From: Rhizaria sp. SCN 62-66
Lineage: Eukaryota
DNA: 64,000 nucleotides
Direction of reading: 5' to 3'
Assembly (NCBI GenBank): GCA_001724265.1
Contig: MEDY01000023.1
Location: 62,001 to 126,000 of the forward strand
The position numbers and the translations under genes are program-made. The notes below the pieces were generated by a model. It did not search any database, was not told the DNA's origin, and saw only the letters and a list, made by a program, of their open reading frames with translations. Of the stretch, positions 37,201 to 63,572 are shown piece after piece; the stretch's first letter is position 1, and every line of letters starts with the position of its first letter.

Positions 37201-39177
37201 TGCAAGCGCCCTGTCGCCCGCGGCGGCCGCGGCGCGCGCAAGGGGCACAAACGATGCCGCTGTGGGGCCCGTGGCCGTGGCAGTGCGCACCATCTCAGTC
37301 AGCGCGGAGACTGTTTCGGGGTCGAAACGCAGGGTGAACTGTGCCAGATCACCCTCGCTGAGATCCAGAGGATCCGTATCACGGAACTCAACCGCAGCGC
37401 TGCTACTGCGGTCCGCCTGCTGCTGTTGCTGCTGTTGCTGTTGGACGTCGGCGTCTGGCGTGCAGTCCGCGGGAGTCGCGTCGCTGCGGCGAGCCCACGT
37501 CTCGTGGCTCGATGCCAAAACGTCGCTTTCGTCGGTGAACAGCTTCGCGAAGCGGCCACGCACGACCGCACTCTCAGACACCTTGCCGTCGTGCAACAGC
37601 TGCGGTGCTGCACTCTCACCAGAGCTGCTCTCCTGTGTAGCAGAGCTGCTGTTGTTGTTGCTGTTGGTGTTGTTGTTGCTGTTGTTGTTCGCAGTGGTGT
37701 TCCTGTCGCGGACGACGGCGGCGTATAGCGCCTCCTGCGACGCCGCACTGCCGAGCACGCGCGCCTCATGCTGCCGCAGCAGATGCAGCAACAGCTCGCG
37801 CGGCTGCTGTTGCGCAAACCGGAGGTAGTCGAGCAGCGCGACGGCGGTGACCGCGGCAGGGTGCGCGTGCAGCCGCCGCCCCGCGCCCGCGCCCGCCTCG
37901 GCCGCCGCGACGGCCGCGACGGAGGAGCCCTCGAGTGCGGTCGACAGCGCGGTCAGACCGGCGGGCAGCGGGGTCGCGCGCGATGGCAGCGCGGGCAACG
38001 CGAGCAGCGCGGGGGCCGCGCGCGCAGCCTCTGCGGCGAGGCCCTTAATCAGAGTGTTGATCACGATGGTGTCGGGCAGGCGCGACGGCTGCGACGGCGG
38101 CCGGCGCTCGGCGCGCGCGACAGCCGCGGCGGCCGGGGTCAACACGCGACTACTACTGCTGCTCACGGTCGCTGACGCATGCGCGCTCGCAGCTCCCGAG
38201 CCCGCGGCGCTGGCGTTTGCGGCGTTCAGGCCAGAGAGCGCGCGCGCGGGCGCCGGGAGCGCGCGGACGTAGGTCTTGAGCTCAGTCGGCAAAGTCGCGA
38301 GCGCGCGCGACAGACCGGGCAGCGCGTCGAAAGCGACGAGGAACAGAGATGCCGCAGCCGCGACGTCGCCGGAGTCGACGGTAGCGCGCAGGGCCTGGGA
38401 GGCCGCAATCGTGTCGCGCGCGGACTGGGCCTCGGCGCGGTCGCGGAACAGCGCGTCTGCGGACCCAATGTGCGCTGAAGACTGAGTTGTGGCAGAGGCA
38501 GCGTTGTTGTTTGTGTTGCTGCGGATGCGAGCGTTGTCAGTATAACGCACGGGCTTTGCGCTAGCATTCACGCTCATGTCTTCATCGTCGTGATCGTCAA
38601 GCCAGCCGTCATCGGCATCGTCGTCCTCATTGTCGTAGGCATGATCATACATGTCGCTGTTGACAGAGCTCTTGCTGCGAGGATTGCTCAACGTCGCGCT
38701 GCCGCTGCCGCTGGGGCTGTGGATGTCAGCAAAGCGGTTCGCGCGGGAGCTGTGCGCAGCAACATTGCTGCGAAAGCTCTCACTGGCAGTACCATGGGCA
38801 GCAGCACCGCGTTGCTTCGCAGAAGCTTTCGCATGCTTGCCACTGGCTTTGCCGCCCTTGGCGCCCTTGCTGAGCTCTGCCGCCGCCGAGGCTGAGGACG
38901 CGCCGGAGCTAAAGGACTGGTTGCGCGCTGCGCTGCGCTGCGCGGCTGCGGCCCACTCGCTCGTCACATCAGTGAGAGAGACACCCTTCTGGTTCAACAA
39001 CGGCGATGGCTGCTGCTGTGGCTGTTGCTGCGAGTGTGGCCGTGAGGCCGCGCCACTGTGGGAGCCTGGGTGGCGGCCCTGAGAGCTAAACTCACGTGCG
39101 CCGAAAGAAGGCGTGCTGACAGACACGGTGGGCGCAAGGCAGCGCGCCAGGGTTGCGGTATGGCGAGCGCGAAGCAT
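34241..39177 (-). CDS. Mitochondrially targeted PPR-like protein with a C-terminal degenerate TrmB-like (tRNA m7G46 methyltransferase) domain, ~1,583 aa. Exons 39177-34528 and 34342-34241, in-frame TAG at 36814-36816
   Basis: The N-terminus is Arg/Ser/Ala-rich with few acidic residues (MLRARHTATLARCLAP...REFSS). PPR-like helices follow (PDTIVINTLIKGLA; PTAASFVPLARAAAAAGDRALAHALILRLRAWGV). TrmB-like motifs occur in the expected order (AKTHPQDLVIANE; NVTVHSGLPLDLLAALP.GGADVVWALLPPP; LAARALRPRSGRLVIASAD). The phase-0 intron is GTACGG...TTACAG. Ends TAA. Confidence 0.65.
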
Positions 39178-39644
39178 CCTGCGTGAGCGGAGTTAGACAC
39201 TGCTGAGCTGACCGGGCTTTTCTACAAAGCAAGGCAGAGCGTGGTAAAACCAGGTCATATAGATATATAATAAGGAAACTAAAGAGAAAATGATGTTTAA
39301 ATTTATATATCACACCGAGTGTTATATTGACGGTGACAGTGCGGACCTATACGTGTTTTAAATTCGCTGCTTCTGTTGTCCGCTATACAACCACACTCTC
39401 GGATCCGTTCATCACCTCACCAAACATGCTTGACTACATCGAAGACTAATGCATATCTGGATCATAACACAATATATGTTATAATACAATAGTTAATTTT
39501 TCATGAGCGTGCATATTCGTTCGTCGTAGCTAGTAATTGTTATGTATTCCCCGGATAAGTGTCTCGGAGAGGCCCTTGCAGGTGACTCTACCGACGCCCA
39601 ATCAGCCATAAATACGCATACCACCAACTCAAACGCTTCCGCGC

Positions 39645-40300
39645 TCACACGGCCTTGACGGGCACAGGCACCCCCGAAGCGAGGTGATCATCCGCCTCGA
39701 CGGGTGGGAGCGGACGGCCGCGGACGCGCTCGTGACGGTGGATCATAGTGTAGATCTGACGCGGCGACAGCTCGGGATTCATCTGCTGCACGCTGAACAA
39801 ATGTAAATGAAATACAAATAAAATCAACTCAAAATATGAGATAAGACTGACTTCAATGTAATACAAGTATAGTACGACACATTGACGATTTCAGATTGCA
39901 AGCGACGCTTTTCAGGAAAAAAGAGGACGTACACGTGGAAGAGGGACATCTTGAGCGGAGACGAGTTAGGGAGGAACAGAATGCCCTCGCGAATCGCCTG
40001 CGGGAGCGTGGACGCCATGCCGAAGAGCCCCATCAACGCGCCCGACGTGGCACCCAGCGCGACAGCCGCCGAGGGCGCCATGCGCCGCCACAGCAGCGCG
40101 CCAGTGGCGAGGGCGGAGACGGCGCCGACGATGCCGCCGCGGATGTACGCCTGCGTCGAGCGCTCCGAGATGAAGGTCTGGTCTGAGTCGGAGACCATAA
40201 GACGGTCCACGCGCTGCAGCTTGGGCTGCGCGACAAGCAGCGTGCGCTCGCCGGGGGCGCTTGCAGGGGCGGAAGGGGCGGTCGGCTCGGTCGAGCTCAT
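39645..40300 (-). CDS. Small two-TM hypothetical membrane protein, ~171 aa. Exons 40300-39933 and 39792-39645
   Basis: It has two Gly/Ala-rich hydrophobic segments and a phase-2 GTACGT...TTCAG intron (140 nt). Ends TGA. Confidence 0.65.
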
Positions 40301-41446
40301 GCCTGTGCGGTAAGGAGGAGAGAGGGTCAATAACGATTTTGTGAACTATCACGACTGAATTAATATACAAAAGCACGTTATTGATACCATATCTGAACAG
40401 CATTCATTTTGACGGTCATCATGCGACGAACAGGAAGTTCTCGATTGGCGGACGCTCTTGCCTACTGGGCGAGCGAAAAACGAGTACTCCGCTGCCAGCC
40501 TTTAACGCGATCTTCAAGTGACCAGAGGTCATATCTTCTTTCCTCACGCTGTAAATACGCGTGCAAAATCGAAAAATCAAGTTTCACAAAAGTTATCAGC
40601 AAATTGCGGTGACTATAAACAATCTTTATTCAGAACCGACGATTGGTACCGAAGATATACTTGAAAACATACCACTTCATCAGCACTGTCGTTTTCTCTG
40701 TCATTGCTATGTTTTATGTCTAAACGCATGTAATCAACACTGAAGACAAAATACCGCGGTGGCATTGTATGCTCAACCATGAAGTATTTATATATCTTGT
40801 TTATATGAGTATTTCAGCAATCCTCATATCCCCACACACTCAAACGTGCATCTCAAAGTACCACTTCCGACCGATATACGCTCTTGATTGGTAAACGCAC
40901 CCGAAACTTCGATGTCTCAACTCCCCTGAACGTCTGACAGCTACCAGACCCTATTCTAACTGCACCTTACGCAATCGGAGCAAACATACCGTGGACTCGA
41001 TCTGCTTGTCTGTCGCCGTCCGCCACAGCGATCAGCCTGAGGGTCGTTTCGTCCGGCGATTGCGGCTAGGTACATGGGCGGACGAATCATTTGAGATATT
41101 CAGCGATGATAAAGACTGATTGCAAATGTTTTTAATTTTTATGGTAACAATTAACTTACTAATGCGTATTGTAATTATTTATTATTCTTACGATCGAAGT
41201 TTAAGTGGGATTTCACATCTCTCGACTGAGGCGTTAGTCGTCGAACTGTCTCGCGTAACTCGACCTTTGCATAATTATCACAACATTAGCATAGCGTTTC
41301 GTTGATAATTCTTACAATTTCCTATGCTAACCTCACATTTGTACATGAAACATTGATAATCTTTAGCCTTTCGCTTTGTTTTGCTCTCATCGCAACTCAA
41401 ACAGTATTTCCACAACTGTGTCGTGCGACTCCCAGAATTGCCACAA

Positions 41447-44400
41447 ATGTCAGCTGCCACACCTGTTGCGTCCGCTGCGAACGTTGCGGGTCTTGACCCG
41501 TCGCTTATTGCTGGCGTTCCTGTTGAGTTTTCACCGCCCGCTGAGGAGGAAATGGTTAACCCCACGGATATCTACACCTTCATCCGCCGTCTCGGAGCAG
41601 GCACCTACGGACAAGTACGTTTCAACAAAAACGCGATAATGATGCCATGGACTGTTTTCATTGCTTGTAAATATAAGATAACCCCTAAATGCACGTATAT
41701 CTAGGTTTACCATTGGAATACCTCACGATTCCGACCGATGTCTCCTTCTCGCGCCTTCCCCGCACTCTTTCTGTGAACTTTGCCACTCACCCAACAACAG
41801 GTCTACCACGCCACCGACAAGCGCACCCAGCGCGACGTCGCGATCAAGATCCTCCCACTTTCGCGTCAAAATGAGGCCGAAATTGTGACGTACGAGCGCG
41901 AGGTTTCTGTCCTGCAGGCGGGCTCGACCTCGCCGTACGTCGTGAACCTGATCGAAACGTACATGTTCGACTCTGAAGTCTGGATCGTCATGGAGTACTG
42001 TGGCGCCGGCGCACTGGAGAGCATTCTCATCGACTCCGCGGGCCGCCCACAGCCGCTGTCAGAGGACGAGGCCGCCGCGGTAATCAAGATGCTCCTGCTG
42101 GGGCTTCTGCACCTGCACCAGAGGCGCAAGATTCACCGTGACGTCAAGGGCGCAAACGTCCTCGTCACAGCCCGCGGCGAGTGCAAGTACGTCAATAGGA
42201 CAAAGCTGAATGAAAAAAATATAATGGCTTTTAGCGAACTTCAAGTTCAATATACTTCAGTGTTTTTCCAATTTATTGTGAAGTCTGTATCATTGTCAAA
42301 ACTATGCTCACACACACTCTGCATGCTCCTGTCACGCCTTGCTTTGCTAGGCTCGCCGACTTTGGCTTGAGCGCGCTGCTCGACACGACGATGGGCAACG
42401 CAAACTCTCTTTGTGGTACGCCCTTTTACGTTGCACCCGAAGTCTGCAAGCGTCGGCCGTACAATGCCAAGTGTGACATCTGGTCTCTCGGCGTTCTCAC
42501 TTACGTCCTCCTCGTTGGACACGTGCCATACCAACTTCGCCACATGAAGGTACGCGGAAATCCAACAGAACGCAATTCCAACTTAAATTTACGTTTTAAC
42601 TCGTTTTTGCAATGTTATTAGATGTTATATCTGACTTTAAGTGTTCACTGCCGCCGATATCTCAAACACAAGCCCGTATTCGCATTATTTCTCCCCCGCG
42701 CAGCCTCTGGAAGTTCTGCGCGCAATTCCCACCGCGTCGCCCGACCTGTGGTACCTGCCCGGCATGCCCGACGGTCACAGCCGCTTTACACCGAGCATGG
42801 AGGCCTTCTGGCGCGACTCGGTGCACGTGCCCCCGCGCCGCGGCTGGTCCCCAGCCGTCTCAGACTTCCTCGCCTGCTGCTTCCACCACAACCCCGAGAA
42901 GCGGTGGCGCGCGGACGAGCTCCTCACCCACGTCTGGATTACACGCGTGCCTCGCTTGCGCTTTGCCGACGTCCCCGCGCGCGACGCGTCTGGCGTTGTT
43001 ACCGTCAAGCGCATGCTCACTGTGATGCCCACCGAGCCCTGTCCGCCCGACGTCGGCGGGTCTTACCCCACCAGCAGCGGCACGCGCCCCGGTCCGCAGG
43101 TCTGCGGCTGGGCAATGTTCCAGGACGACCATGGCATGGGCGCGCGTGCAACGATCGAGCGCCACGTGCGCCGCATCATTGCCAACATCACCGCGGGGCT
43201 CCAGACCAAGAACTTCACCGAGACCGGGCGCGATCGCATCGTCAAGAAGCCACGCGGCGAAGTCCTCGAGTTCAAGCGCGGCTCTACCGCCGTGCCGCCC
43301 ACGGCGGAGCGCATTGCAATGGCGGTAATGCTGGAGGAGCGCGAGAGGGCCAGCGTTGCAGAGCAAACGCGCCGCGCGTTGGAGGAGTCCGCAGCGGCGT
43401 TGAGCGCTAAAGAAGCCGAAGCCAAGAGCAAAGAGGACGCCGCCGAGGGCGTCGCCGCCGTCGCGAGCGCGTTGCACCACGGGTATAAGCACGCGCATAC
43501 CGCCACCTCTGTGTCCGGCTCCGGCGGGGCGGCAGCTGTGTACAGCGCGATCGCGACTGCGGTGGGTAACGTGCAAGTCCACTCCGACGCCGCGAACACT
43601 GCGCACAGCGTCGTCACTGTCGACAGCCACGTGACCTCAGAGAACGCGCACGACAACGCCGCCCACAACCACTACGCACACGGACAGCGCCGCGGACGCA
43701 GTCGCCGTGACCAGCAGCAACAGCAGCTGGAACAACAGCAGCAACAGCAGCTGCAGCAGGATCGTAACCGCTCCCCGTCCTCGGCCTCGGCCGCGGCCAC
43801 CGCCGAGCGCGCCGCCATCGCTGCCGCGAGCGCCGCCGTGTACACCAACACCATTGCGGTGGCCAACGCGGAGCTGCAGGAGACGATCGCCCGCGGCCGC
43901 GCACTGGCAGCGGACCGCGCGCAGCAGCGCGAGATGGCATTCGCCGCGGAACGCGATCGGCTGCGAGACGCTGCGCAGACCGAGGCGCGCGCCTTCGAGC
44001 GTGGCGTTACGGAGGCCACCGCAGCGGGCGCCGCCGCCGCGCTTGCGGTCGGCGTGCCGACAACCGCGCTGCTAAGCGCTATGAGCACTGACTTAGCGCA
44101 GTACGCGGCGAATGGAGTCGCGGGCGCCACGCAGACGATGCTGGTGCGGCGCGTCGGCGGTGTCGGCAGCGACGACACGGGTGACTACTTCCCCAACCGC
44201 GCCTGGCTCAACGGCGCGTGTCGCAGTGTCGACTTCGTGAACCTGCTCGTGCGCGACGTGCGTCGCGCGACCGAGGACGCGCACCGGTTCGAGCGCGCGA
44301 AGGCCTACTGGGACCGCGAGTACATCGCGGCGGGCAGCACGAGCGCGGCCGCCACGGCGGCGGCGGTGCAGGCCGCCACGGGTGTCATTGAGGGCACGTG

Positions 44401-46998: not shown

Positions 46999-47726
46999 GG
47001 GTCACTCTCGACACACTAAGTACCTCGCTGCCGTTTAAGTGCCCTCTTAGTCAAGTAATTCCTATGTAAGTACACCCCGTCTCAGTATATCTGAGATACA
47101 ACACACATCTTTGCTGTTTTGCAACTCGCTTTGTTGTACAGTTGCAACCTTTGTTAACTCTCTCTGTGCTTTTTAAGTGACATTAAGTGTCAAATGTTTC
47201 CAAGAGCGTGCGATTCTTTTCGAAGCATATCTGAGTTCCCATTGGCGTTTATACCTGCTTTTGATCGCAGCTCTTTTTTTGTTTGCTAGTTTTTCTTTCA
47301 GTGGTACTGTTTGCTTCCGTGCCCTAACTTGTTTCTGTCTCTTTTCATCGCACCAGTCACTCAATGTGTATCTTCAAGTCGGCCGATCTGAGTCAACTGC
47401 CCTATCTCTTTTCGTAGTGTCACTTGGTGTGGTGTGTTTTGTTTTCGTCTATTGTCTTCTTTTGTTGTCTTGAACAAAGAAATTATTTCTCCTATGATGT
47501 TGTAAAGCTATGTCCTTCATGGACTTAATCTAACCATCGGTCCTTCGTATGATGGCGCTCTGGACCGAGGTCGAGAGGGATTTGGTTTAAGTCAAGTTGG
47601 CAACAAAATACAGATTTGCGACCTGAATTCACGCTAAAACGGGCCGGAACACAGCTTATTTATCGTAATTGTAATTGTATTAGCAGTAAAATAGTTTATC
47701 GCACTTCTTAACGCATCGAGTTGACT

Positions 47727-47760
47727 TGCAATCTATACCACAGTGCAATCTATACCACAG
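47727..47760. repeat. 17-bp perfect tandem duplication (TGCAATCTATACCACAG x2)
   Basis: Read directly from the sequence. Confidence 0.85.
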
Positions 47761-48129
47761 TAGTTTGACCACCCAAGTCGACGCCATTAAGGTAGTTTCC
47801 GACTGCCATGGCGGAGAACTTCCTTGCGCTGCCAAAGAAGGCATAGAAAGATATCAAGAAGGTCATCCGTGCCTATGTTGCCCGCATCAGGGGGAGGCGC
47901 GAAACAAGTAGAAGGTCTATAAGTCTAAAATGCCACGATCCGAGTATAGTAAGTCCCTACGTCGCAAGTGAGGTTTTGTGCGCATTCCTTGCAGTCTGCA
48001 GGGAACGCCATGACCTTTTAGAGAGAGCAGTGTGGAGGGTCCAAGGAGAGAGTTGACAGAGGGGGCAGGAGTTCGATGTGATAACAATGAGCTTAGAAAA
48101 AGAAATACAAATACAACTATTATAAGCAC

Positions 48130-48978
48130 TTAATACACTATGGCGCTTAATAACATTCCCGGTGACAACTCACTAAGTGTCGCAGCGCCGGCGTCTCCCC
48201 ATGGCTGAACGCCAGAACCTAGATCCGGAAGTGGCGAAAGCAGAACTAGCCGTGGCACGCGCTCAAGCTTATCTCGATAAGCCATTATCACTTGTTGCCC
48301 GCGGAACTGACCTACCGCAGCAGCATCAAAGCCGTTGTTGTTGTTATTGACGCCGTTAGAACGCATGAGTGTGAAACCTGCGCCGTTGTTACGGTAGTTG
48401 TGATTGCTCGGGGCACTGAACGCAGCGACAACAGTGCCTGAACCCGCGTCAGCCCTGCCGCCACTGGGCTGCGGCGGCAGAGCTGTGGGCACGTTGGCCG
48501 GCTCCGGAGGCGTGATCTGGATTGGCTGTGACCGTGAGGGCGAGACGCCGCCAGGATTGGATAGACGCGGGTCAAGAGGAATGTTCTGGATATATCCTCC
48601 GTTAGCGCCTAAACAAGTAAAATGCAGTAGTATAGGGTAGAAGCGGACTATGACCGCTTCTACCCTCGACTACTATGCATTGAAAGAATGAGCGTGCACT
48701 GTCAGCTTCTTATCACTTTATGTATTAATACTCAAGACGACAATCAGTGTATGCTAGTTATTGGAGCAATAGGCCAATTACAATGTGAGCTCAACTGAAC
48801 TGAACGGAGAATACAGACATGATTTAAAGGATTTTTGTATTTGTCAGGTGCTTTCCTCTTTCCCTCAACATACGCCGCAGCATACTCGTCAGTCATGTCG
48901 TTATATTATTGTTATAAATAGGAGTAGACACTAACCAACTCTGCGAGTGTTGCCGAGAGCAAGAAGCAAAGATAGCAT
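48130..48978 (-). CDS. Possible hypothetical gene, structure uncertain; open exon ~48608-48174
   Basis: An open frame (ANGGYIQNIPLDPRLSNPGG...NNNNNGFDAAAVG...) follows a TTGTTTAG acceptor at 48609. A phase-matching GTTAGT donor at 48935 would add MLSLLLALGNTRRV. The 3' end is unresolved. Confidence 0.3.
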
Positions 48979-49043
48979 TAGTAACCCAGGCGCAGCGCAG
49001 TGACAGGGAGCCGCTCTGGCGCAGCAGCCGGGGGTTCCGCATC

Positions 49044-49098
49044 CACACACACACACACACACACGCACACACACACAAACACGCACGCACATACACAC
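49044..49098. repeat. Imperfect (CA)n microsatellite
   Basis: The sequence reads cacacacacacacacacacacgcacacacacacaaacacgcacgcacatacacac. Confidence 0.9.
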
Positions 49099-49483
49099 GG
49101 GACGCCAAACAAGGCGCCGCATAGGCGCGAGCGCGCGGTGTGCAGGTGTGATGGAGGGAAAGCGCTCTGTCGCGCCCCGCGGCTGCGAACCGCGGTTACA
49201 GCACGCTGTCTCCGGGAGAGGCGGCGTGCGACGGCGATTGTGGGGGCGACGGCAGCGGTGGCTGGGCGGGCGCGGAGAGGCCGCAAACGGCGAGCCTCGG
49301 AGCGCGGGATCGCTCAGCGCGCGCCGCCGCTCTCAAGCGCAGACGCAGGGAGGAAGGCGACAGGGACGGCGGTTAGGCAAACGAAAAAGTGGGAGGAGTT
49401 GGTCGGCGTTGTGTGGTGCGGCGACCAGTCCATTAGGCGAGGCTTGGTAGGCGAGGCTCTGTGAGAGAAGCTCAGCAAGCTGC

Positions 49484-49888
49484 TTAGTGGAAAGTGCGCT
49501 CCTGGTGGAACTTGCGCTTCTTCCACTGGTTGATGACGAAGCCAGCGCCGCCCCACATGACGCAGAGGTGGACGAAAGCGCGGCCGGGGTTCTGGACCAG
49601 AGTGGTGGTCTGTGTGCGGCAAGTAAGGGTGCGAGGCAGAGACGGAAGCATGAAGATGGACGTGAGCAAGGCGAGGGAGGATATACGGAGATTGGGAGGT
49701 GATCAAATTGAGCTCGAAGCGAGGGCGAGTCCGGATGGGCGTAAACAAGCCAAAAAGGAAGTGGGAAAGGGACGTACGGCGTAGGACTTAGCAGCATCGC
49801 AAGTGGACTTGGCAAAGCCGGAGGTGAAGATGCCGAGGGGGTTGTTGGAGCCGACCTTGCGGGACCAGAACGGGGTGACAGTGGACAT
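49484..49888 (-). CDS. Small single-TM protein, probably mitochondrial ATP synthase subunit f, 78 aa. Exons 49888-49778 and 49609-49484
   Basis: The spliced product is MSTVTPFWSRKVGSNNPLGIFTSGFAKSTCDAAKSYA|TTTLVQNPGRAFVHLCVMWGGAGFVINQWKKRKFHQERTFH. Its size, the F-x-H before a TM helix and the basic His-ending tail resemble subunit f. Codons are strongly biased to C-ending. The phase-0 intron is GTACGT...CACAG. Ends TAA. Confidence 0.55.
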
Positions 49889-50555
49889 ACCTGACTGACT
49901 GGGGGTGGTGCAAATAGGGCAAGGTCACACAGCGATGAAGTGAGCGTCAGGAGAAATGCAGGACAAACACAAGAAACAATAAAGCAAGGAACCTATAATA
50001 ATAATCCTACATTGACGTCTGCGACGGCGCTGAACCACAATAGCCTAAGCGATTAAACTCCCCAAGTCTCGCGGCTAGACTTTCTCCGCTGGCCGGTTGC
50101 CTTCAGCCAGAATTTTTGCGAACTGTACACAGCGACCGAGGGTTTGAAAAAATAGAAATCTAGGATGTAATTATATCGGTGGTGCCTCCGTCTATGGCAG
50201 TGATATTCAATTTCCAAATTTAATTTTGACGTTCCTATTTGTTTCTAAACTTAATATCCCTCTCTTGGACTTATATATGCTAGGTCGGCTTGCTTCCTAG
50301 TAACTGTGAGAGTCACCCATACGCCTCTTTATCTTCATGTCCCCGACGACCCCCGGTGCACTTTGCCGATCTCTTATGCAAGCAGCACAGTGTTCACGCA
50401 ATTCCCCGCTGTTAAAACTCCGATTTTTACTCTCTTTGCCTTCATAGACTCTCACACGCCTCCGGTACAGCTTACCTGAACGCGTCACTTCTCGAAACAC
50501 CCTTGCCCCGCCAGCCCCATTTCGCTCTCTGCACAGAAGCCTACCCACTTCTCCC

Positions 50556-51533
50556 ATGGCCACAGCCCCGCCGGGGCCACCTGGCCGCGGACCCGTCGAC
50601 CTGTTTCCGCCGTTCCACGCCGCGATTGCCTTCGACTCCGCGCGCTACGAGGCCGAACTGATCCCCGCGCTCCGCGACCGGCTCCGTGCCCATAGCGGAC
50701 GCAGTCGCATCCACCGTGCGGAGGGCAGCGGCGCTGCGCCTGCGACTGCGAACACTGTCAACGCGGTATCTGCAGCGACGCTGGCGATAGACCGGGCGGA
50801 GCTGCAGTTCCTCCGCGACAACGGCGTCCGCATCCCTAGCAATCGCCGCAATCGTAATACTCACCCTGCCAACGATAATGACGACGACGATGACGATGAT
50901 GATGATGATGATGAGTGCTACGACGCAGATGGCACGGGCCTTGGCCTTAGCATGCTGCAGATGGGATCCGGCGGCGCGGGCGCGCATAATGCAAGCCGCG
51001 TCGCGCCGTCCCCGTACACTCAACGCTACAACGCCGACACAGTCAGCCGTATTGCCCCATCGCCCTATATGCAGCGCTATAATAACGCTGCCGCAAGCGG
51101 CGCTCACGGTCACCCCGCTGCCGCCGCCGCTGCTGCTAATGCTGTTGGCGCGGGCGCGGGGGCTGCTGCTCAGAGGCATTACCTCTACGATGACGATGAT
51201 GATGACGACGATGACAGTCTCGGCAGTGGTCTCTTCGCAAACCCCACAGCCGCCGCCGCCGCCCACGGTCACGGGCACGGTCCTAACAACGCTGTGGGCG
51301 GTATCGGCGTCAGCAGCAAGCACTTGCTGTCCAGTGCAGTCGCCGCCGCAGACGCCGCGTTCGTCCCTTCGCCTTTTCCAGTTCGCACGCAGCCCCGTAA
51401 TGCAACCGCTGTTTCTAACGCCGCCAACAGCAATATCGGTCTAGTCACGCCAGCCAAGCGCCCCCTCGGCCCGCCGCTGCCGCCGCCCAGTGTCATCATG
51501 CCTGGCGGCACCGCTCCCGCCCCCACAGTCACT

Positions 51534-51568
<35 letters not shown>

Positions 51569-54500
51569 CACTGGCGCTGGCGCTGGCGCGGCTGCTGCTG
51601 GGAGGTTCGGAGGACTGCCGCCACCGTCGCCGTTCCGCGGTTACAGCGGGCCCCCCGTTCCCCATCCAGCGATGGGCACCAACACCATGAGTACCGCGAG
51701 TAACGCGAATACCCTCTACGACGCCCCGAGGACGCCGGAGCGCAACGGCAACCGCGGCGGCGTCGGCGCAAGTGCCAGTAAGGCGCTGCTGCTGAGCGCC
51801 AACAGCAGCCGCACGCACAGCCACTTCGGAACACATGGGACCTCTGGCGGGGGGGCTGGAACCGGTGGCGCTCACGTTCACGGCTTGCTATCGTTCCCCG
51901 CGTCGCCCGCACTCGCATGCATCACCCCCATCCGCGGCCGCAGCCACGGCAGCCACGGCGGCCATGGGAATGGCGCGTTTACGATGGCGACGCCAACGGC
52001 GCTGCCGTTGCCTGTGCCGTTGGGGCCCAATAACAACGCGGGCGTTGCAAACACGGCTGCGTTCCCGGCGTCGCCGTTCGCGCTGCGCCAGAACAGCAAC
52101 GTCAACACGAACACTTAGCAACAACAGCAACAGCAGCAGCAGTTGGCTGCGAGTGGTGATGCCGCAGAAAACGATTTGTGGTGGGAACAGGCGGTTTATG
52201 ACCCCCACTGGCGCACCAACACTGGCCCTTGTCCTTTTGACGCGGCCCCGTTGTCCCAACCTCTTACCGCGGACTCTAACGGCGCGGCTGAGTCTAAGTA
52301 CCCCGTGGGGACGCCTAAGTACCCGTTGTCGAGCGGCCAGCTGTCCCCGCGCAGCGCCGAGGCCGCTAGCGACTTATTCTTTGCAACGCGGCCCGCGACG
52401 CCGCCCGACGCACAGTACCCTGGCAAGTGCACCGTCGTCGATGCGGAAAAAGGACGGCTGGATGTTGTGCTGTATGACCCTGTAACGGATACGTTTCCGG
52501 AGTACGAGAAAGCGCTTGCAGCGCATAATAAAGCTGCTGCGGAGGCTGCCGCTGCTGCTGAGGCTGCTGCAGAGGCCGAGGCTGAGGCCGCTGCGAGGGC
52601 CGATCCTGTGGCGGCAGCAGTGGCTGCGGCGAGCGACAGGAACGCTGTGGGCGGGAATCCAGTGATAATCGTTACGCCGTCCTCCGCGAACAGCACAAAC
52701 ACTGTCGGCGTTGCTGTAGCATCCACCGGCCTCAGCAAGGGTTTTGGGGGAGACGACGACGACGGCGACAGTTACGAGTTCAACTTCGACTCTGATTCTG
52801 AAGCCACCACTGCGTTTGCAGCTAAGGGGGGTGCTGCTTACACCAACGCTGGCGTAATTGCGCCGCCGCCGCCGGTGCTCGATCTGTCCGTGATTCCCCC
52901 GCCCTCTGCACCGAGAGCCGCACCAGCCCTAACAGCAACCGCAACAGCACCGGTCGTCGTCAAAGCAGCGGCAGCTGGTGCAGTAGTGCAGCCGAGTGAG
53001 CTCACATCCGCTGCATCGGACTCATCCGCCCCGGTCGCCAGCGCGAACCCCGACTATCTCACCGTAACCACCACTGCCACTGTGGCGACTGGACTGCCGG
53101 CGACTGGTCAGTCGCCGTCGCCGCCGCTGTCGCTAACTCTGATCCCCAGCCACAGCGGCGACGGCGGCAGCGCCAACGCCGCCGCCGCCGCCCCCAGAGC
53201 GAGCCAGCGCAACAGCGCCGGCAGCACCAGCAGCGGCGGCGGCAGCGGCGGCGGTAGCGGCGGCGGCGGGAAGAACCGGCGCGGCGCGAGCGGGCTCGAT
53301 CTCAGTGCGCTGCGGCTCGCGTGGGACGCCGACGCCGCGCCCGCTGCGCCCGCCGCCGCAGGGCCCGCTAGCACTGTTGCTGTTTCCGCCCACCCCAATC
53401 CTGCGGTCGCCGCGACGACCGAGCAGGCGATCTTTGCTCCCGCACGCGGTTCTGCGGCGACTGCGACTGCTGCCGGTGCTGTTGCAGGTGGGAACGACGA
53501 CAGTACGCTTGACTTGGGGCTCACGACCATAAGCCCTACCGCTGTAACTGTGCCTGCGACCGCAACTGCGACCGCGAGTGCTGCAGCGGTTCTTGATGAT
53601 GGCGGCTTAACTTTCGGCGACGCGACCTTCGGCCTCACTCTCGGTCACCACACCGTCACCGTCAACCAGAACGCTGCGCACGCTGCTAACCCCTCTCACA
53701 GCAGCTCTATCACTGGTGTGCACACCGCGTTTGGCGCCAGCAGCAGCGGAGGCTTTGGCGCGAGTTACGACGCACTGCCGCAGGAGACGTCGCAGAAGCT
53801 TGGCCCGCTGAAGCGGCTGCCCGCGCAACGCACGCGCCGCGCGAACACCAATCTCGGTGCGCTCTCCAGCTCGAACGCGAACTTGAGCGGCACTGCCGCG
53901 AGTCTCAGCACGACGATGAACGGCAGCGGCGCTGAGGGCGACAGCGGCTCGTTCTCGCTTTCGCTGACGAGGTCGCTGCTTGCGCCCATCGGCGGCGGGG
54001 GCGGCGGCGCGGCTGCAAATGTAAACGTGGTTACGAACCACGGTGATGTTGCGGCAAATGGCGGCGCTGTGCCGAAGCGGGTGTTGGGACCGATTAACAC
54101 GACGCGCGGCTTGCCTTTGAGCCTTATTCCGAGTCAGAGCAATAACAGCCAGACCAATCATGGCACTCTAAATATGTCCGAGCTCTCGTTCGACGACGTA
54201 ACGCACGTCCCAGCCGCCGGTGCCGGCGTCGCCGCTGCAGCCGGCGTTCCAGAGGCACCTCACGACGCTGACGAAACGTCGCTGCCGATGTCGCCGCCTC
54301 TGGAGCCCAGCAGCACTCCGTTGCCCGACCCGACCCACGCTCACCACGGCAGCCACCATAACGCTCACAACGCGCACGCGGGCGAGCAGTCGCTGTCCCA
54401 GTCGCTTTCGCAGTCGCTCGCTATGACGCTGTCCGCCGCGAGCGCCGCCGCGCGCGGGGGCCGGCTTGCCCCTATCTCCGCCGCTGCCAACTCGAGCAGC

Positions 54501-57500
54501 GCCAGTTCGAGCGCAGCCAGTGTGAACAGCGCGAACGCCGCGGGCTCTAGCGGCGTTGCGTTAAAGCTTGACAGCCACTCGATGTTCGCTAACGCCGCAA
54601 GCCCCGCTGGCACGAATTCACTGAATGCACTCGCGCTGCGCGCCCGCGCTGGCGGCAATCATCACGCTAGCGCCGTCGCTGAGAACAGCGGCGACGGCGG
54701 CCGCGCAGACAGCCAGAGCGGCGGATTTGCGAGCACGATGAGTCCGTTTTCGTTCGGGAAAGCTAGGCTCACCCTTGTTCCCACAGAGGCAACATCAACG
54801 ACGAAGACCAACCTTTTCAACAACCTCAGCGCCGGCAACGATACCGCTGCTGTTGCCACCGCTGGCTCTGCTCCCGCCGTTGCAGTTGTTGTCGAGAGTA
54901 ACATCGACGACAGCGGCAGCGACTTCGGCGACTTTTACGCCGACACCGCGAACCTGCCCGCGCCCGCTGATAACAACCACGTCGAGGCGCCTCTAAGCAC
55001 TCCGCACGCGGCCAGTGGCGGCCACAGCGGCTGGGGCAACAACCCCGTCGGCGCCGCGGCCGGCCCGATCACGCCGCGCCCGGCGCGCACGCAGCCGTCT
55101 GCCTTCGCCACCTCGGCCAACAACGCCGACAGCGGTCCGACCGACGCTACCCCGCTGCGGCCCAGCAGGGCTGCGAGCGGCGGCGCGGGCAGCAACGGTT
55201 TGGCTGTGCCGGGGCAGGGACTGGCACCGTTCCCGTCGCCCGGCTACACGCCGATCAAGCCGCCCGCGCGCTCGCATGTTGACAGCGCCGTCCACACGGC
55301 CGGCGGGAACGTTTCCACGGGTAGCACGAGTTTCGGCAGCGTCACCGCAAGTTCTATCGGGACTGCGGTGGGCGGCGACGTTGCTGGGGATGGGGCTGCG
55401 TCCGCGAGTTCAAGCAAGAGGGACAGGCGGTGTGGGCAGTGGCTGCATAGTGAGGAGCTTACTCAGGTAATCACAAACAACGCCGACGGCGCTAACGGGG
55501 CCGCGGGTAGTGGCTCTGATGACGCGCACGCTGTTGCTGTGAACAACAGCAACGACTCCCGGACGCAGTCGCAGCAGCTGCAGTCGCACTCGCAGCAGTC
55601 GCTTCAGTCCCTGCCGCTGCCCAACACTGCAATCACCTCCAACTCACTTTCACAGTCTTTAACGCATTCGCAGCTGCAGGCGCAGGCGCAGCAAGCTCTA
55701 TCGCAGTCGCGCACGATGTCGCGCACACGGCACTTTAGCGCCACTGGCACCGGGAGCAGCAGCGGCGACGCCGGTTCGTCGTCGTCACCTTCACTCAGCT
55801 CGCAGTCGCAGTTTCAGCTGCACAGCTCGCAGTTGCACCTGCTTCCGTCGCAGTCGCGCTCTCGCTCGCGCTCGCAGTCGCGCCTCGCTGACAGCCACGG
55901 CGACGCCCGCGACGACGACGGCGACCGCGACGACGACGCGCACACCGCGAGAGCCCTCGGCGCCGGGACGCTGAGAGTGGCCAACGACCCTGTCAGCACC
56001 AGCGTCAGCACCACGGCTGCGAGCACGGGCAGTCAGGTTCGCCGCATCGACCTCGCTGCTGCTGCTGCGGCCGCCGCTGCTGCCGCCGCTGCTGCAGCTG
56101 CTGCTGGCGGCAATGGTGCCGCCGCCGGGGGCGAGGACGGACTTATCAGACCGATCAAGCTGCATATGTACTCCGACTCCGATTCCGAGTCCGACACCGA
56201 GTCAAACGCGTACAGCGTGGGCGCTGCTATCCGGCTCAGTAGCGCGCCTGGTGATCTTCGGTCAAGCGCTGTTAGTGCTGTGGAGACGAGGGGCAATGCG
56301 CTGGATGAAACTGACGCGAGCACGCTTGCGATCGCGGTCGATGGCGAGTCAAGCGACACTGACAACGGTGACGACTCAGGCCTCGGTGACGCCGTGAACA
56401 ACACCGACTCTTCCGGCGCTCCTGATGTTTTTGTTGGCGCTGGCAATGACAATGCGAGTGATCACGAGTACGATGACGACGAGTTCGACATTGACGTTGA
56501 TGACGTCGCCGCTGACCCGACACACGCAGACACTGCGCCTGCGAATGCGGACGCCGCACAGCTATGCGTGAGCGGGCTTGCTGACTCCGACAACCGCGGC
56601 AGCGACGCGAGCAGCGGCAGCGACGGCTCCGACCGGCGCCGGAGCCGGACAGCGTCGCAGCTCTCTCGCCGCAGGTACGACGACTCCACCGAGGATCACG
56701 ACGGCGACAGCAAGAGAAGCAACAACACGACGTTCAGCGGCATCAACGGCAGCATCAACCTCAGCCGCGTCGCCGGTCCGACTGCGCAGCAGAGCGCAAG
56801 CGCGGGCGATGCTGTTGGAGCTGCGGCTGCCGAGGCCAACGGCAATGCGACTGCTGTCTTCAACGGTGACGGGGCCGGGGGCGGCGCTGCGATTGTTGCT
56901 ATTCTGGGTGACTTCGACAGCGACTACGAAGGCGACGCGACGGCGGACAACGGTAATGCGGATGCTCACGACAACGTCGATGCCAATGGCGCCGGGGCAG
57001 AGCCTGCGGCTCTTGAAGCCGTGAACCCAGAGACTGATGCGGAGGCGGCTGCGGAGGCTGAGCGCCGTGCTCTGTTGTTTGAAGCCTCTGTGGCCGCAAC
57101 GGAGACAGTCGAGGACGACTCATTCAACGAGCTTGACGGCACACCCGCTGTGCCCGGCTCGTCGGCGCCTGCCAACGGCCACGCCGAAGACGGGGACGAC
57201 GCTGATGTGGTGGCGAATTACAGCAACAGCAAGGATGACACCAATAGCAATGATAACGAAAATGATTATGACGACAATGGCATTGTTGATAATTCCCGCT
57301 GTGCCAAACCTAATTCTAGAGCAGTGCACGGCGACGGTGTCATTGGCGCCGCTGTCCTTGCCACGCGCGGTCTGCTCGATTCGTTCACATCGACGATCAC
57401 CATGGTGCCCGCTCGCCCAGCCAATGACGCCAACGCTGGCGACGCGGCTGGGCAGTTTGGCGACGGCGACTGCGTTGACGGTAACGGCGATAGTGCCGGT

Positions 57501-60500
57501 GGCGATGATGGGAACAGCGACTTCGTCCCAGAGCCCGGAGCGATGGGCGCGATGTGGGAGAATGACGAAGACGAGTACGACAGCAACACCAACATCAAAA
57601 TCAACACCGACGCTGGCGGTGCGCACAACAACGGCAGCAACGACACTGAAAGCGACCCGACACAGGCGATCACCGCGATCACCGCCCTTTCCTCATCTGT
57701 CGCGAGCCGGCTGCCACCGCACAACAGCAGCAGCAATGCCAGCAATCACGCGAGCGGCAACCACGGCAATGCGGACAACAACAGTGACCATAATCACTTG
57801 CAGACACGAGTTGGACGCTCGCAGTCCATCGGAGCCATGCGGCCTTACTTTGAATCGCGCATTTCCTTTGATACACGGTCAAACGTTAACGCTGCGGCCC
57901 AATCCACCGATGCCTTCAGCACACCATACGACAACAGCACTGTGAATGCCAACACAAATGCTTTTGCGCCTCAACAAGTCTCGACTGAATCCTCCACTGC
58001 GAACACTGGTAGCCTTGCCGCTCCCAGCGGCGCTACACCGGTCCCGTTGCGGCGCGCGCTTACGTTTCCCGACGCCAACGCTGCGGTCAACACGTCGCTC
58101 TCTCAGCAGCAGCAGCAACAACAACAGCAACAGTCATCGCAGCCGCAAAGCGGCGACGTCAGCGTCAGCAGCACCGCTGTGCTCGGCTCGGCCAACGCGC
58201 CGCCGCTGGCGCTGCTGTCGTCGACGGCGATCCCCACTCCGACGCAGACGCCGGCGCCTTTGCTGACCGCTGCCGCTGGCTCATCAGCGGCCGGGATTAC
58301 GCGAGCTCTCGCGAGTCTGCAGCGCATCAACGGCGACGGCAATGCGTCGAGCGTCGGTGCTGGGATGAGCGGTCTTGACACGAGCGCGGTTGCGCAGCCG
58401 CTGGTATTGAACCACAGCTACAGCAACAACATCGACAGCAGTCGTCGCTACAACGGCGTTACCGGCGCTATGTATGGCACGTCTAAGCGCTCATCCATGT
58501 CCGACGTCGTAGCGGCCACTGCTTCGACGAACACGTACGCGGGCGCGAAGACAATTGGTGACCGTGAGCAGCAGCAGCAACAAAGTAGCCATGAGCCGCC
58601 GCAAAGTGACCGTGGACGGGGCGTGCTGCTCCAACAGCCCGAGTGGAGCGAGTCCGAGCTTGACGTCACTGCCATTGTGCCGCCTCACACTGCAGCAGCA
58701 ACGGATAACGCAGAGACAGGCGATCATAATGAAATGGCGACTGACGATGCAATTCATGCAGACACAGCTGCTACGAATGCGCCAGTCAAGGCCTCTGGCA
58801 ATAGCGGCGCTATTGGCGGGATCATTACGGGCACAGGCGCGATCGCCAGTGTGGGGGGTGTCAAAGTCGCTGATCTATCATGGGGCGACTGCACAATGAT
58901 CCCGTCGAAGCACCCCTTAGACCCCGGCCAGCAAGACGCACACAAACATTCCCCGCCCGTCGTCACCACTGGCGCAAGCGCTGGCGCCGCTGCTGCCGCT
59001 TCCGCTGCCACAGCCGCCGGTCCGGCCCCTGCTCCTGCTACCGCAGGCGCTGCCGTCGCTGCGGATGAGAGCGTAGACTTCGGTGACGTCACTGCAAATT
59101 CGCTCACTAACGAGTCCACCTTTGCCTTCGGCTCCCCGTTGCGCCCGCGTCAGGCCGTCACGCGCCTCCCGCTGACCCCGCTGCCGCAGTTCGATAAGAT
59201 CTACGGCGGCGCTGGCCCCGGCGATGCCACTGTAGCAGCGAACGCAACCGCGGTGGAGCCTGCTGGTGGCAAGGCCGACGCTGGCACTGTTGGCGACGAG
59301 GTTTGGGACCATAACGCGACTCTGGAGGGTCTCAACGAAAGCAATTTGTTCCCTACAAACCCCAACAGCAACAACATTGTCGGCCTTCGAAATCTCGGCA
59401 GTGTGAACGCGCTCCCTGTTAGGGCATCTCAGCTCGCGCCGCAGCCCCCGACTCACGTCCACACTGCCGCTGCGGCCGTGCCGGGCATTAGCGGCGGCGT
59501 TTCCAACCCCGTCGCAAGTGTCGCCTCTGACGACAACGCCGATGACGCTGACGACAGTGACGGCGCGCCGTGGTCGCGGCCGTTGCCGCCCATAGGCGTG
59601 CGCGGCATGGGCATCGGTGCTGCGCTGCGCAAAGCTGCCGAGGCGCGCGCTCTCGCGTCAGTGGGACCGCTTGACGGGCTTGAGCCTGCCAGTGACGTTT
59701 CTCTTGCTGTTGCGAACAACAACGACAACAGCCAGAGCTGCGCGGTCGCTGTCGGCGGCCCCGCTCAGACCGCCGGGAACGACAGCGCTGCTGCTGCGAA
59801 CACAAGTGTCGCCAGTGTCGCCAACAGCGGCAGCCGTGGCCACGGCGCTGTGTGGACCATCAAGGTCACTGGGCCGGCGTCTGCTGAGGCGTCCACCGTC
59901 GCTGCGGTCTCTGCAGCCGCTGCGGCTGCTATTAGTCACATCACTAACCCGAACGCGGTGGCCAGTGGCGAGGCTGATCCGAACGGCAACACCAGTTTGG
60001 CTGTTAGTGGCCACTCTGTTGGGGCTGGCGCTTCCCGCGCCGGTCAAAATACCTCGGGCTTCGGTCTAAGCACATCGGGCGGGCTCGATCACTCACTAGG
60101 ACTCGGCACTGGAGCTGCGTTCGCCCCTGCACACCATGCTGTCACAACACGCAGTGGTTTACAATCGGCAGATCCTGTTGCGACAGCAGGCGCCGACGCT
60201 GCCGCACACTTGCATGGAAGCGTGGACGCTGTTGACTACTCATTTGCGACAAATATCGCCCGCAACAACAACGCTAATGCAGCGAGTGCTGCCGTAGACA
60301 TTCCGCAGCCCGCATCTTTTCCACCACAGCAACAGACCCAGCCACCATCACAGGCGTTGACTCATGTTTCGTCTCCTGGGCAGACCCATGCACACCTGAG
60401 CGCGATTCGCGCGCGCCCGCTGCCCGCAAGCGACCCTAGCGGTTTCGGCGGAGGCATTGCGCTGGTGCTCGGCCCCGCCGCCGCCAGCGCGCTGCTAGAG

Positions 60501-63500
60501 CAGTCTCTGGCGGCTGCGCTGGCGCCCGCAACCAGCGCCGCAGCTGCGGCTGCAGTGGGCCACACGCACACGAACACCAGTCTGAGCAACGGTAACAACA
60601 CTCTTCCACCTCTGCCGCCGCCTGTGCTTGGCGCTCGCGACGGCAACCGCAGTTCGACTGCGGCGAACACCAGCGCGTCGGTCCGAACTCTCCGTGAGTA
60701 CAGTACCGACGACGGCAGCGATGACGGCGTTGTCGCCGACGCGCACGGCGCCACGGATGGGGTAAGTCGCACGTTGTTCGCCAACAACGACAACGACACG
60801 TTTGCCAACACAACTACACGCGGAAACGCCGTGCAGCCGCCGCATCAGCATCAGCAGCAGCTGGTGGACCAATCATTTTCTCGTCGCAGCGCCCCGCCTC
60901 GTGCAAACTCGAGATTCTTGAGCAACGACTTATCTCTGCTGAGCAAACTCGAGACGACCCATGCGCCACCCAGAGCGTCCGCGACTGCTACTGCCGCGGC
61001 CGCCGCTGCAGCAGCTGCTGCAGCCGTTGCTGGCGGCTCTGGTGGTGGGCTAACGCCGGCTGCAGTTGAGGCTGTGGCTGCAGCAGTCGCCGCCGTTCTT
61101 GCCAATTCAAACGCTAAACACGGCGTAAACGCTAACTCCGTGCAGCTGCAGCAGCAAGAGGAGTCACAACAGGGAGATGACATGTCGTTCTTTGCTGCTC
61201 CGAGCCCTGTCCTTGCTGCTGGTGTTTCCCAGCAGCACCAGCAGTTGATGCAGCAGCAACACCAACAGCAGTTACAGCTGCAGCAGATGCAGCAGCAACA
61301 GCTCCAGATGCAGATGCAACTACAGCAACAGCAGCAACAGCAACACTTTGCCCCAGCGCCACTGCAGCCACAGTTGCAGACCGAGGCGGAGGCGTTCGCT
61401 CTCGCGCACGCACTCGGCTACGGTGCGCACATAGCCCACCCACTGCATATGTCTGCGCCCGCGCCCGCGTCACAGGGCTTCCTGGAGCCGCAGTTCGGCG
61501 GCGCCGCGTACGCCGCAGTCGACGCAAGCTACGCGATGCCGCTGTCGCACGATGCGCAACTCACGCTCGTCGAGCAGTCGCAACTGCACTCGCAGTCTGC
61601 GGTTATGATGCCAGAGCAGATGCATGCAGTCCACGGCCACCATGGGAGTGACGCTGCGGCGACCGAGACTGAAGCAGAGGCCGAGGCGGAGGCAGCCGCC
61701 GTCGCCGCCGCAGAGGCCGCTTATGCCTTTGTGATGGCCCGTCGTACCGCGGCCGGGACGAACTCAGCTGTGTCAGTGCAGCACCGCGGCCAGCCCCTGC
61801 CGCCTGCTGCCGCGCCCACGGTCACTCTGACCGCCGGTGCCTCTGACGTCAAGACGACCCGCGGCGGCTTTGCCCACGACCACTCCCGCGCTGCCGACAC
61901 GACGTCCGCGTCGCTCGCGCCATTGCTGCCGCTGGAGACGTCGATGCTGCCTCACATCATCATCGACCCGCACAGCGCCAACACGCACCGCAAGCCCTCC
62001 GCAGGCGCGAGTGCGACTGCGGCTCGGCGGCTGCACGAGAGCGCGAGCGGCCCTGCGAGCGGCGCTGCGAGCCCCACCTCCGGCTCCGGTCGCAGTAACA
62101 GTAGCAGCCCGCCGAGCGCTCGCGATCACCGGGGCGGCGGTGACCGTGACCGGCAGCGCCGCGCAAGCGACCATGAACAGGAGAGTGCTGATGCAGAGCC
62201 TGCGTGGGCGCAGTCGCTGCGGGCCGCGCCGGCGCCGCTGCGCACTGCGAAGCTTATGCGCGCGCGCGACGTCGCCCTTGCAGACGCAGACGCAGACGCC
62301 GCTGCAGTGTCCGCCGCGATCCCTGCCGGCCCAGTATATGCACTACCAAGCACTGCCTCTGCTCCCGCTTCCGCTGTTGCTGCAGCAGTCGTGCCAGCTG
62401 TGCGTGCGCGGACGCGCGCGCCTGCGTTGGCTTCCGTTGTCGACGACGCCGCGTTCGCCGCGCCCGTGTCGGCCGCCGCGCGCACCGCCGCGCTGGCGCG
62501 CTCGGCCGCAACCAAAGTCGCCGCAGCGGCTTCCGCAGCCAACAGGCATGCACACAGTCGCGGTCACGATCACGTCCACGGCGATGCGCAGACGCCGGCA
62601 CCGCATGCCAATTCGTTTGCGTCCCCACCGCGTAACGCTCGTGGCCCCGCGTATGCAAGCCCGGTGAGCGGCCCTCATGTTCACAGTCACCACGTAACGA
62701 CTCCTCCGGGCTCCAACGCTGCTGCTGTTGGCAGCGCGCCGGAGTCTGCTTCGGCGGCGCTGGCTGCACTGCGGCCTATGTATGCCTCGCCTCTGCAGCC
62801 CTTCATGCGCCAGCAAGCGCTGTACGCCTATGCTGACCGTTCAGCAGCAGCGGCAGCAGCAGCGGCAGCGCAGGTTCAGTCCCAGATTGGTACTGTTGGC
62901 GCGGGTTCGATGTCGCCCATGCCACAGCCTGTGTTCGCGACGCCTGCGCCGGAGTTGGGGCCCGGTCGGGGCCGCGCGCGCGCCGCTGCCGCAGCTGCCG
63001 CTGCCGCGGCCGCAGGCGCTGGCGCTTCAGTCGGTCTAAGCGTCAACTCTGTCTCTGTCACAGCAACGCCGCGTCTTGTAACAGGAACTAACGCCAGACA
63101 CCCTCACCCTGCCTCTCGAGGCGCGTATGCTGGGCTGAGCGCGTATGCCGCTCCGGCGACGCCGTATGCAGTGGCATCGGGCGCGTACACAATGCCGCAA
63201 ACTCCGTACACAGCGCCGTACGTACCGCTTTCCGTGGCGGCGGCAACGCCGTACGGAGTTGCGCCGAGTGCTTACGCAATGCCTGCGACGCCCTACATGC
63301 AGCGGCCTGTTGCTTACGCGTCTGGTTATGGTGCTGGCTACCCTGCGCACCACGCCACAATGCAGCCATCAATGTATTCAGTCCAGCAACAAAGATTGCA
63401 GCCAGGTCTTAACCCGACAAACAGTCACTTTGCGCGCTCTCCGACCTACTCCGGGGCGAGACCCGCTTACTCCGGTGGGCTGTCTACTCCGGGTGCTGAA

Positions 63501-63572
63501 GCGAAGGCGTTGCAGTCGCTTCAGTACCAGTTGCAAGCAGCGAGGCACGGGCTTGGCACGCATCAGTACTGA
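50556..63572 (+). CDS. Giant intronless low-complexity / disordered protein, ~4,338 aa with in-frame TAG at 52116-52118
   Basis: ORFs 50556..52118 and 52143..63572 are in the same frame. The gap reads TAG CAA CAA CAG CAA CAG CAG CAG CAG TTG, with no intron or intergenic character. The downstream ORF begins at TTG rather than ATG. Ends TGA. Confidence 0.8.

Follow-up and report, generated by a model that had tools for sequence, protein, structure and literature searches.

What does a TAG codon mean when it stands at the head of a glutamine tract, inside a frame that is otherwise open for thousands of codons? This question is raised by position 52116 of a 64,000-nucleotide stretch of contig MEDY01000023.1 (Rhizaria sp. 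SCN 62-66), which we call the window. We consider it probable that the window belongs to a genome with a nuclear code in which UAG alone among the stop codons has become a sense codon, with glutamine (Gln) as its likely meaning and with UAA and UGA still acting as stops, and that 50556-63572 is one gene.

The reading frame around the TAG at 52116

The preliminary description held that this TAG heads a CAA/CAG run and joins open reading frames (ORFs) of 520 and 3,809 amino acids (aa), and exactly this is seen at 52116-52118, with eight Gln codons following (AAC ACG AAC ACT TAG CAA CAA CAG CAA CAG CAG CAG CAG TTG GCT). The two ORFs, 50556..52118 (520 aa, ATG start) and 52143..63572 (3809 aa, TTG start), both lie in frame 0. 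When TAG is read as Gln, the frame 50556-63572 encodes 4,338 residues, contains this single TAG and terminates with TGA. Counted from stop to stop, the TAG divides 556 and 3,817 stop-free codons; arithmetic from base composition puts the chance spacing of stops in a random frame at ~64% GC at ~40 codons. If UAG is translated, the 520-aa and 3,809-aa ORFs are therefore one gene.

Codon usage and base composition are coding-like on both sides of the TAG. A codon-usage score trained on Pfam-bearing genes gives the segment 50556-52115 +0.32 bits per codon in frame (-0.39 and -0.71 in the other frames). After the TAG the score is +0.31 over the first 600 codons and +0.28 over the remainder, which equals that of confident genes, and the other frames of the block score from -0.04 to -0.83, that is, near zero or negative. 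The sequence just 5' of the ATG at 50556 (50337-50555) is non-coding by the same measure. GC climbs from 0.45-0.48 (49900-50499) to 0.70 at 50500 and is coding-like over the entire block, including the 100 nucleotides centred on the TAG (0.60); in the flanks it is 0.46 (upstream spacer 49900-50500) and 0.38 (downstream). The motif PY.QR occurs only three times in the six frames of the window, at 51012 and 51063 before the TAG and at 63291 after it, towards the end of that frame.

The 4,338-residue product is almost entirely of low complexity, with runs of Ala, Ser, Gly, Asn, Asp and Gln, yet its codon usage matches that of conserved genes. It contains no Pfam family. A search for homologous proteins with residues 380-900 scored 1,582 candidates and found none at E <= 0.001, and a search for related loci with 52119-53300 gave 597 pattern matches, none of them confirmed. 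Three strain differences are listed inside the gene, two of which fall on third codon positions.

The TAG might be removed or altered before translation, by splicing of a GC-rich intron or by U-to-C RNA editing, or it might be a true stop between two genes. We regard this as very improbable. The letters TTAG|C are readable as a splice acceptor, and an RNA contig bridging 52116 was not seen. However, none of the 62 frame-keeping GT..AG pairs that span the TAG carries the local donor consensus, and GC around the site is well above the 0.27-0.41 of verified introns. At the analogous TAG at 36814, a contig from a polyA RNA library (X5) is unspliced and unedited. No AT-rich spacer lies between the two ORFs, and the first in-frame ATG, at 53916, is 599 codons past the TAG, which leaves the downstream part without a start codon to itself.

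Strand asymmetry is strong in the spacer upstream of the gene (48001-50000), where GC skew is 0.16 and AT skew 0.18, and a microsatellite of the (CA)n type lies near 49040-49100.

In-frame TAGs and gene ends across the window

Seventeen coding segments of the window, 14,527 codons in all, hold five in-frame TAGs, spread over four genes, and not one in-frame TAA or TGA (Table 1). The sites other than 52116, for which the 3' contexts AGC, CAG, GTG and CTG had been given, were found at 6663, 25828, 26527 and 36814 (minus strand). Stops in all six frames that have 80 stop-free codons on each side (n=90) were ranked by whichever of the two flanking coding scores was lower. The first four ranks are taken by 36814(-), 26527, 25828 and 6663, and 52116 is seventh; the two stops in between (ranks 5 and 6) come from antisense frames of known genes. 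Each of the five TAGs is thus flanked on both sides by stop-free sequence with coding-type codon usage. Four further TAGs, at 11897, 15009, 18803 and 44809, were considered as sense candidates and dropped, as they lie within, or at the ends of, AT-rich introns or at splice acceptors.

Genes in the window appear to end in the other two codons. The 12 inferred gene ends comprise seven TAA, five TGA and no TAG, and two of them are confirmed by the end of a Pfam profile (Actin 409/410 in ARP6, TGA; RIBIOP_C 291/291 in Tsr1, TAA). Excluded from the count were ORF ends that lead into introns and those of weak or partial models (875, 1019, 2223, 10529, 15965, 18805, 30439, 30894, 40327, 42370 and 44695). 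A Fisher test of internal stops (five TAG, no other) against terminal ones (no TAG, 12 other) gives p = 1.6e-4. Judged from its letters, the window appears to carry the marks of a UAG-only stop-to-sense code, namely in-frame TAG, genes that end only in TAA or TGA, and coding continuity.

The main rival is a standard code with leaky termination, in which the TAGs are nonsense changes (CAG-to-TAG or the like) in dispensable, fast-evolving genes and are passed by low-level near-cognate readthrough (Gln, Tyr or Lys) with no suppressor tRNA. TAG is extremely rare and restricted to unconserved genes, as such changes should be, and the poly-Gln site fits a plain CAG-to-TAG transition. C at position +4 makes the leakiest stop context, and three of the five TAGs have it. 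The pattern as a whole fits less well, and we judge this explanation unlikely. It calls for five events in four of ~17 genes within 64 kb, with no TAA, TGA or frameshift lesion among them; frames stay open and coding-like for 771 to 3,817 codons past the TAGs; none of the 12 terminators is TAG; and, in the frames as read here, the few strain differences on the list are mostly at third positions of codons in the TAG genes. The TAGs also share no context and have no downstream structure.

The last point bears as well on context-driven programmed readthrough, which had been put forward as an alternative and finds no support at these sites. The five 3' contexts differ, no columns are conserved around the TAGs, and the 100 nucleotides downstream fold no better than shuffled sequences (z = -0.19, 0.15, 0.45, 0.00 and -0.54). 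Programmed UAG readthrough of the tobacco mosaic virus type depends on the context UAG-CAR-YYA. The TAG at 52116 resembles it in being followed by CAA, but the next codon is again CAA rather than YYA, and the other four sites differ. An extension of 3,817 codons is also far beyond any readthrough extension known to us.

Homology extends across the TAG at one of the five sites, 6663. An exhaustive HMMER search with the 273-residue protein of gene 6123-6944 found five proteins at E <= 0.001. P0003, whose 176 aa stop exactly at the TAG, and P0004, a 46-aa tail, are standard-code calls of this same gene in public protein collections. P0005 (33% identity) aligns in a single stretch over residues 102-244, spanning residue 181, where the TAG lies, and P0006 aligns with residues 89-184, again across the TAG position. 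The fifth match, P0007, is weak and repetitive. Taken alone, the 92 residues after the TAG match P0005 98-141 at E = 4e-5. The homology of P0005 and P0006 is collinear over residue 181, and therefore the frame runs on through the TAG. Callers that use the standard code have already split TAG genes, as P0003 and P0004 illustrate, so that eukaryotic contigs of this organism are mis-annotated in metagenome catalogues. For the other three TAG-bearing genes, protein searches found no homologues; with the 1,559-residue gene, 7,999 candidates were scored for orthologues and none passed. The predicted structure of the 273-residue protein, from a three-row alignment, is too poor (mean pLDDT 44.3, pTM 0.37) to judge whether a single domain extends over the TAG.

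Locus L003, which comes from the same metagenome as locus L001 (described below), has at 905-1805 a copy of the 273-residue gene with 43% identity. The copy is read in two frames that overlap at ~1323-1621, a frameshift or an assembly indel, and it has TAC where the window has the TAG. Its neighbour in L003 is an open frame of 1,210 codons with no TAG and a TAA end. L003 and another locus, L002, which need not belong to the organism of the window, carry distant homologues or paralogues with apparent frame shifts, and the homologous gene has no in-frame TAG in them. A tRNA scan of both loci found none.

Other assemblies carry the TAGs as well. L001, which comes from another collection, matches window positions 5064-7661 at 100%, the TAG at 6663 included. 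DNA contigs of sets X2 and X3 show no difference from the window over 36000-41381 and 51603-53214, and a 1,671-nucleotide contig covering the latter interval keeps the TAG at 52116 with no differences; the numbers for X2 and X3 are near-identical, and the two may be one data set. A contig of X4, a run from another study, differs from the window at 52162 and 52262, and its position relative to these implies that it covers the TAG; no change at 52116-52118 is among the differences listed. In the polyA RNA library X5, a 259-nucleotide contig (36655-36913) spans the TAG at 36814(-) without a difference or a joint. We therefore hold it least probable of all that the TAGs are an artefact or population variants, whether errors of assembly or sequencing, or nonsense alleles carried by a minority haplotype. 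The window is indeed a metagenome assembly, X1 may be its source, and X2 and X3 may count only once. Against this stand the recurrence of the TAGs in L001, in the X2/X3 contigs and apparently in X4, and the fact that all five interruptions are one codon, which is not expected from errors.

Table 1. Coordinates of in-frame TAGs, gene ends and associated features of the window
Feature	Position	Strand	Remarks
In-frame TAG, proposed sense codon (probably Gln)	52116-52118	+	Sole stop in its frame
Run of eight Gln codons (CAA CAA CAG CAA CAG CAG CAG CAG)	52119-52142	+	Directly 3' of the TAG
Upstream 520 codons	50556-52115	+	Begins at first ATG of the coding-like block
Downstream 3,817 codons, same frame	52119-63572	+	TGA end at 63570-63572
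In-frame TAG	6663-6665	+	Residue 181 of the 273-codon gene 6123-6944, TAA end
In-frame TAG, then CAG	25828-25830	+	Gene 25534-26937 (TGA end); flanking coding scores 0.25, 0.30
Second in-frame TAG of gene 25534-26937	26527-26529	+	Flanking coding scores 0.44, 0.26
In-frame TAG	36814-36816	-	Joins 792 + 771 stop-free codons, gene 34498-39177 (TAA end)
TAA gene ends	3137(-), 6944, 12897, 14597, 24401, 34498(-), 46998
TGA gene ends	7275(-), 26937, 27433(-), 32490, 63572
Intron of the Tsr1 gene	10509-10624		GC 0.27

The residue at UAG and the sparse use of the codon

In the reading that we favour, UAG would be translated, most likely as Gln, by a tRNA that descends from tRNA-Gln(CUG) and bears a CUA anticodon, and the release factor eRF1 would presumably be altered; UAA and UGA would stay stop codons. 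The residue placed at UAG is predicted from the neighbourhood of the TAGs. The 4,338-residue product of 50556-63572 would be a low-complexity, lineage-specific protein in which the TAG at 52116 lengthens the poly-Gln run to nine residues.

Three observations point to Gln. Runs of at least four Gln are scarce (14 in 14,527 coding residues), so that a random residue adjoins one with ~0.2% chance, and the TAG at 52116 does so. The TAG at 25828 directly precedes CAG. In a likelihood based on neighbouring residues, TAG scores log10 values of 1.58 for Gln, 0.76 for Leu and 0.67 for Met, a preference for Gln over Leu of ~6.6-fold. The poly-Gln run, the TAG-CAG site and the context likelihood are suggestive of Gln as the favoured residue, and are not proof of it.

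UAG might instead be a sense codon for another residue. Candidates are Leu, its meaning in the rhizarian exLh, Ser, its meaning in Scotinosphaera, and Tyr. Leu comes second in the context likelihood and would fit at 36814, where the sequence reads ...PEAL?LLAGL; at 6663 the homologues have His or Tyr, and the TAC of L003 is one change from TAG. An unrelated residue would, however, be expected beside the eight-Gln run at only the ~0.2% rate per site, a second TAG stands in front of CAG, and the context score favours Gln over Leu. We think that another residue is improbable. Of the earlier statement that UAG means Gln and not Leu, the part that UAG is translated is well supported, and Gln is the best-scoring residue; that it is Gln is not established, given the His, His and Tyr at 6663.

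A number of observations weigh against translation of UAG as Gln. First, the codon is very rare, with five occurrences in 14,527 codons, ~1% of Gln codons. The ratio of TAG to CAG is 5/476, against 102/457 for TTG to CTG, a comparable synonymous C/T pair, so TAG is ~20x rarer; a neutral Gln codon at equilibrium would give ~100 TAGs, and five are observed. Second, none of the five lies in a Pfam-domain segment (~5,350 of the 14,527 codons); the genes that carry them are all poorly conserved and might tolerate nonsense alleles or leaky stops. Third, the poly-Gln pattern would also be expected from a CAG-to-TAG mutation tolerated by leaky termination. Fourth, the residue opposite the TAG at 6663 is His in P0005, His in P0006 and Tyr in L003, with an indel adjacent, and because of this the site does not identify the amino acid of UAG. 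Fifth, tRNA and Rfam scans of the window came back empty, with no tRNA gene of any kind.

The data also impose limits of their own. Ten of the 12 gene ends are inferred only from the end of an ORF and a drop in GC. Two ORFs do end in TAG (18803 and 11897); we read these ends as intronic because coding sequence or a domain continues downstream. The training set of the codon model had 383 of ~5,100 codons in the wrong frame, an effect that we regard as small. The X5 contigs, the one over 36814 included, may derive from RNA or from carried-over DNA, since the rows listed show no spliced joint of this organism. X5 contigs around 52116 cover 51603-52049, 52786-53087, 54241-54588 and 54946-55371; none bridges the TAG, as CAG repeats break contigs, the nearest stops at 52049, and the uncovered part is evidence neither way. 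All of the evidence comes from one 64-kb window.

The rarity of TAG suggests that the reassignment is recent, or that decoding is inefficient and selected against. In terms of mechanism, the reassignment would probably be young, or its decoding inefficient and still in competition with termination. A more specific proposal is that an early or ambiguous reassignment of UAG has taken place in an uncultured, GC-rich flagellated relative of fungi and other opisthokonts from wastewater reactors, in which UAG was dropped as a terminator, is decoded as Gln and has so far entered only ~1% of Gln positions, all of them in fast-evolving genes. We offer this tentatively, as somewhat doubtful. If true, it would be the first UAG-only reassignment in the fungal/opisthokont region of the eukaryote tree and would show stop-codon capture in progress, as a snapshot from nature. 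The combination of a rare TAG and its absence at gene ends bears on the question of whether a stop codon is first lost and then captured, or passes through an ambiguous stage.

Related genetic codes and the host of the window

Nuclear codes in which UAG and UAA differ in meaning are known from only a handful of lineages, according to two papers (PMC5304391, PMC11687900). As given there, UAG alone has changed from stop to Gln in Iotanema spirale, Protocruzia tuzeti and some phyllopharyngean ciliates. UAG means Leu, with UAA kept as a stop, in the rhizarian exLh and some ciliates, and it means Ser, again with UAA kept, in Scotinosphaera. According to these papers and a third (PMC6299283), Amoeboaphelidium protococcarum reads UAR, that is, both TAG and TAA, as Gln. 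Two Amoeboaphelidium genomes have GC contents of 40.5% and 39.9% (table 1 of PMC10608142).

The window most resembles the code of the Iotanema and Protocruzia type: TAG occurs in frame, TAA and TGA are terminators and TAG is not, and Gln is favoured. The predicted mechanism, a tRNA-Gln with a CUA anticodon, is also alike. This code is NCBI table 15. In contrast, the host of the window is a GC-rich (~62%), intron-bearing flagellate, neither a fornicate nor a ciliate, and its TAG is far rarer, at the ~1% of Gln codons noted above. The rhizarian exLh and Scotinosphaera are like the window in that the meanings of UAG and UAA are uncoupled in a nuclear genome. They differ in the residue, since the context in the window prefers Gln over the Leu of exLh and nothing in the window points towards the Ser of Scotinosphaera. 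A new, unrelated and GC-rich case would be a further independent origin of split UAG and UAA meanings.

Amoeboaphelidium is similar in being a lineage near Fungi with a stop-to-Gln change, and the ARP6 of the window likewise falls among opisthokont sequences. However, unlike the UAR code of Amoeboaphelidium and ciliates, the window has TAA at seven of 12 gene ends, one of them at the end of the Tsr1 C-terminal domain, and no in-frame TAA in 14,527 codons. We considered and rejected Amoeboaphelidium as the identity of the host, because the genus has ~40% GC and reads TAA as Gln, whereas the window has ~62% GC and TAA as a terminator. A literature search for a described wastewater eukaryote with a UAG-sense code gave nothing relevant among the matches listed, which does not show that none exists. 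As read here, the code is of a known kind; the lineage that has it is unplaced and uses the codon unusually rarely.

The window is eukaryotic, with Pfam families matched by seven of the 17 long ORFs scanned. These are CAP-Gly, Actin (ARP6-like), Tsr1, flagellar Ig domains of the CFAP74/CFAP65/ASH type, and PAPA-1; a later Pfam scan also detected part of a protein kinase and the C-terminal domain of Tsr1. Exons have GC of ~0.6-0.75, and spacers and introns are AT-rich; the window as a whole has ~62% GC. The introns are short GT..AG introns with GT[AG]NGT donors, and the verified ones have the low GC given above. The stretch is found again in sequencing runs of several studies, on contigs from bioreactors, wastewater and activated sludge, and the window is therefore a metagenome-assembled piece of an uncultured eukaryote.

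For the ARP6-like protein, the highest identity among 29 hits is 39% by BLASTP and 46% over aligned columns, and its nearest Atlas clusters are fungal ARP6. In a tree of 27 rows its sister is an unnamed NCBI protein (100/99 support), and the pair is placed inside a group with Capsaspora and fungi at 80/92, which is below the usual thresholds. The host is a flagellate with introns and a weak affinity to opisthokonts.

The Tsr1 gene (9243-12897) has at least three AT-rich introns: the one in Table 1, one between ~10625-10965 and one between ~11775-12243. The ORF 10596-11777 (frame 0) is a non-coding frame with no Pfam match, and the true exon lies in the frame of 10865-11899. The block 14679-24401 is a very large flagellar gene of CFAP74/CFAP65/hydin-like type, with at least three frames joined by short introns (~15966-16036, 18748/18853-18928), and its presence indicates that the organism builds a motile flagellum. 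The protein-kinase fragment at 41798-42370 (Pkinase profile 14-138 of 263) must belong to a multi-exon gene.

In each of the four runs, the summed contig depth at 47288-48615 is much higher than elsewhere (up to ~290), with many variant letters, and a 96-nucleotide skip (47653 to 47750) is present in both DNA and RNA runs. Nothing in Rfam matches this region at E <= 0.1, and it shows no obvious conserved ORF; it may be a repeat or an element common to other organisms.

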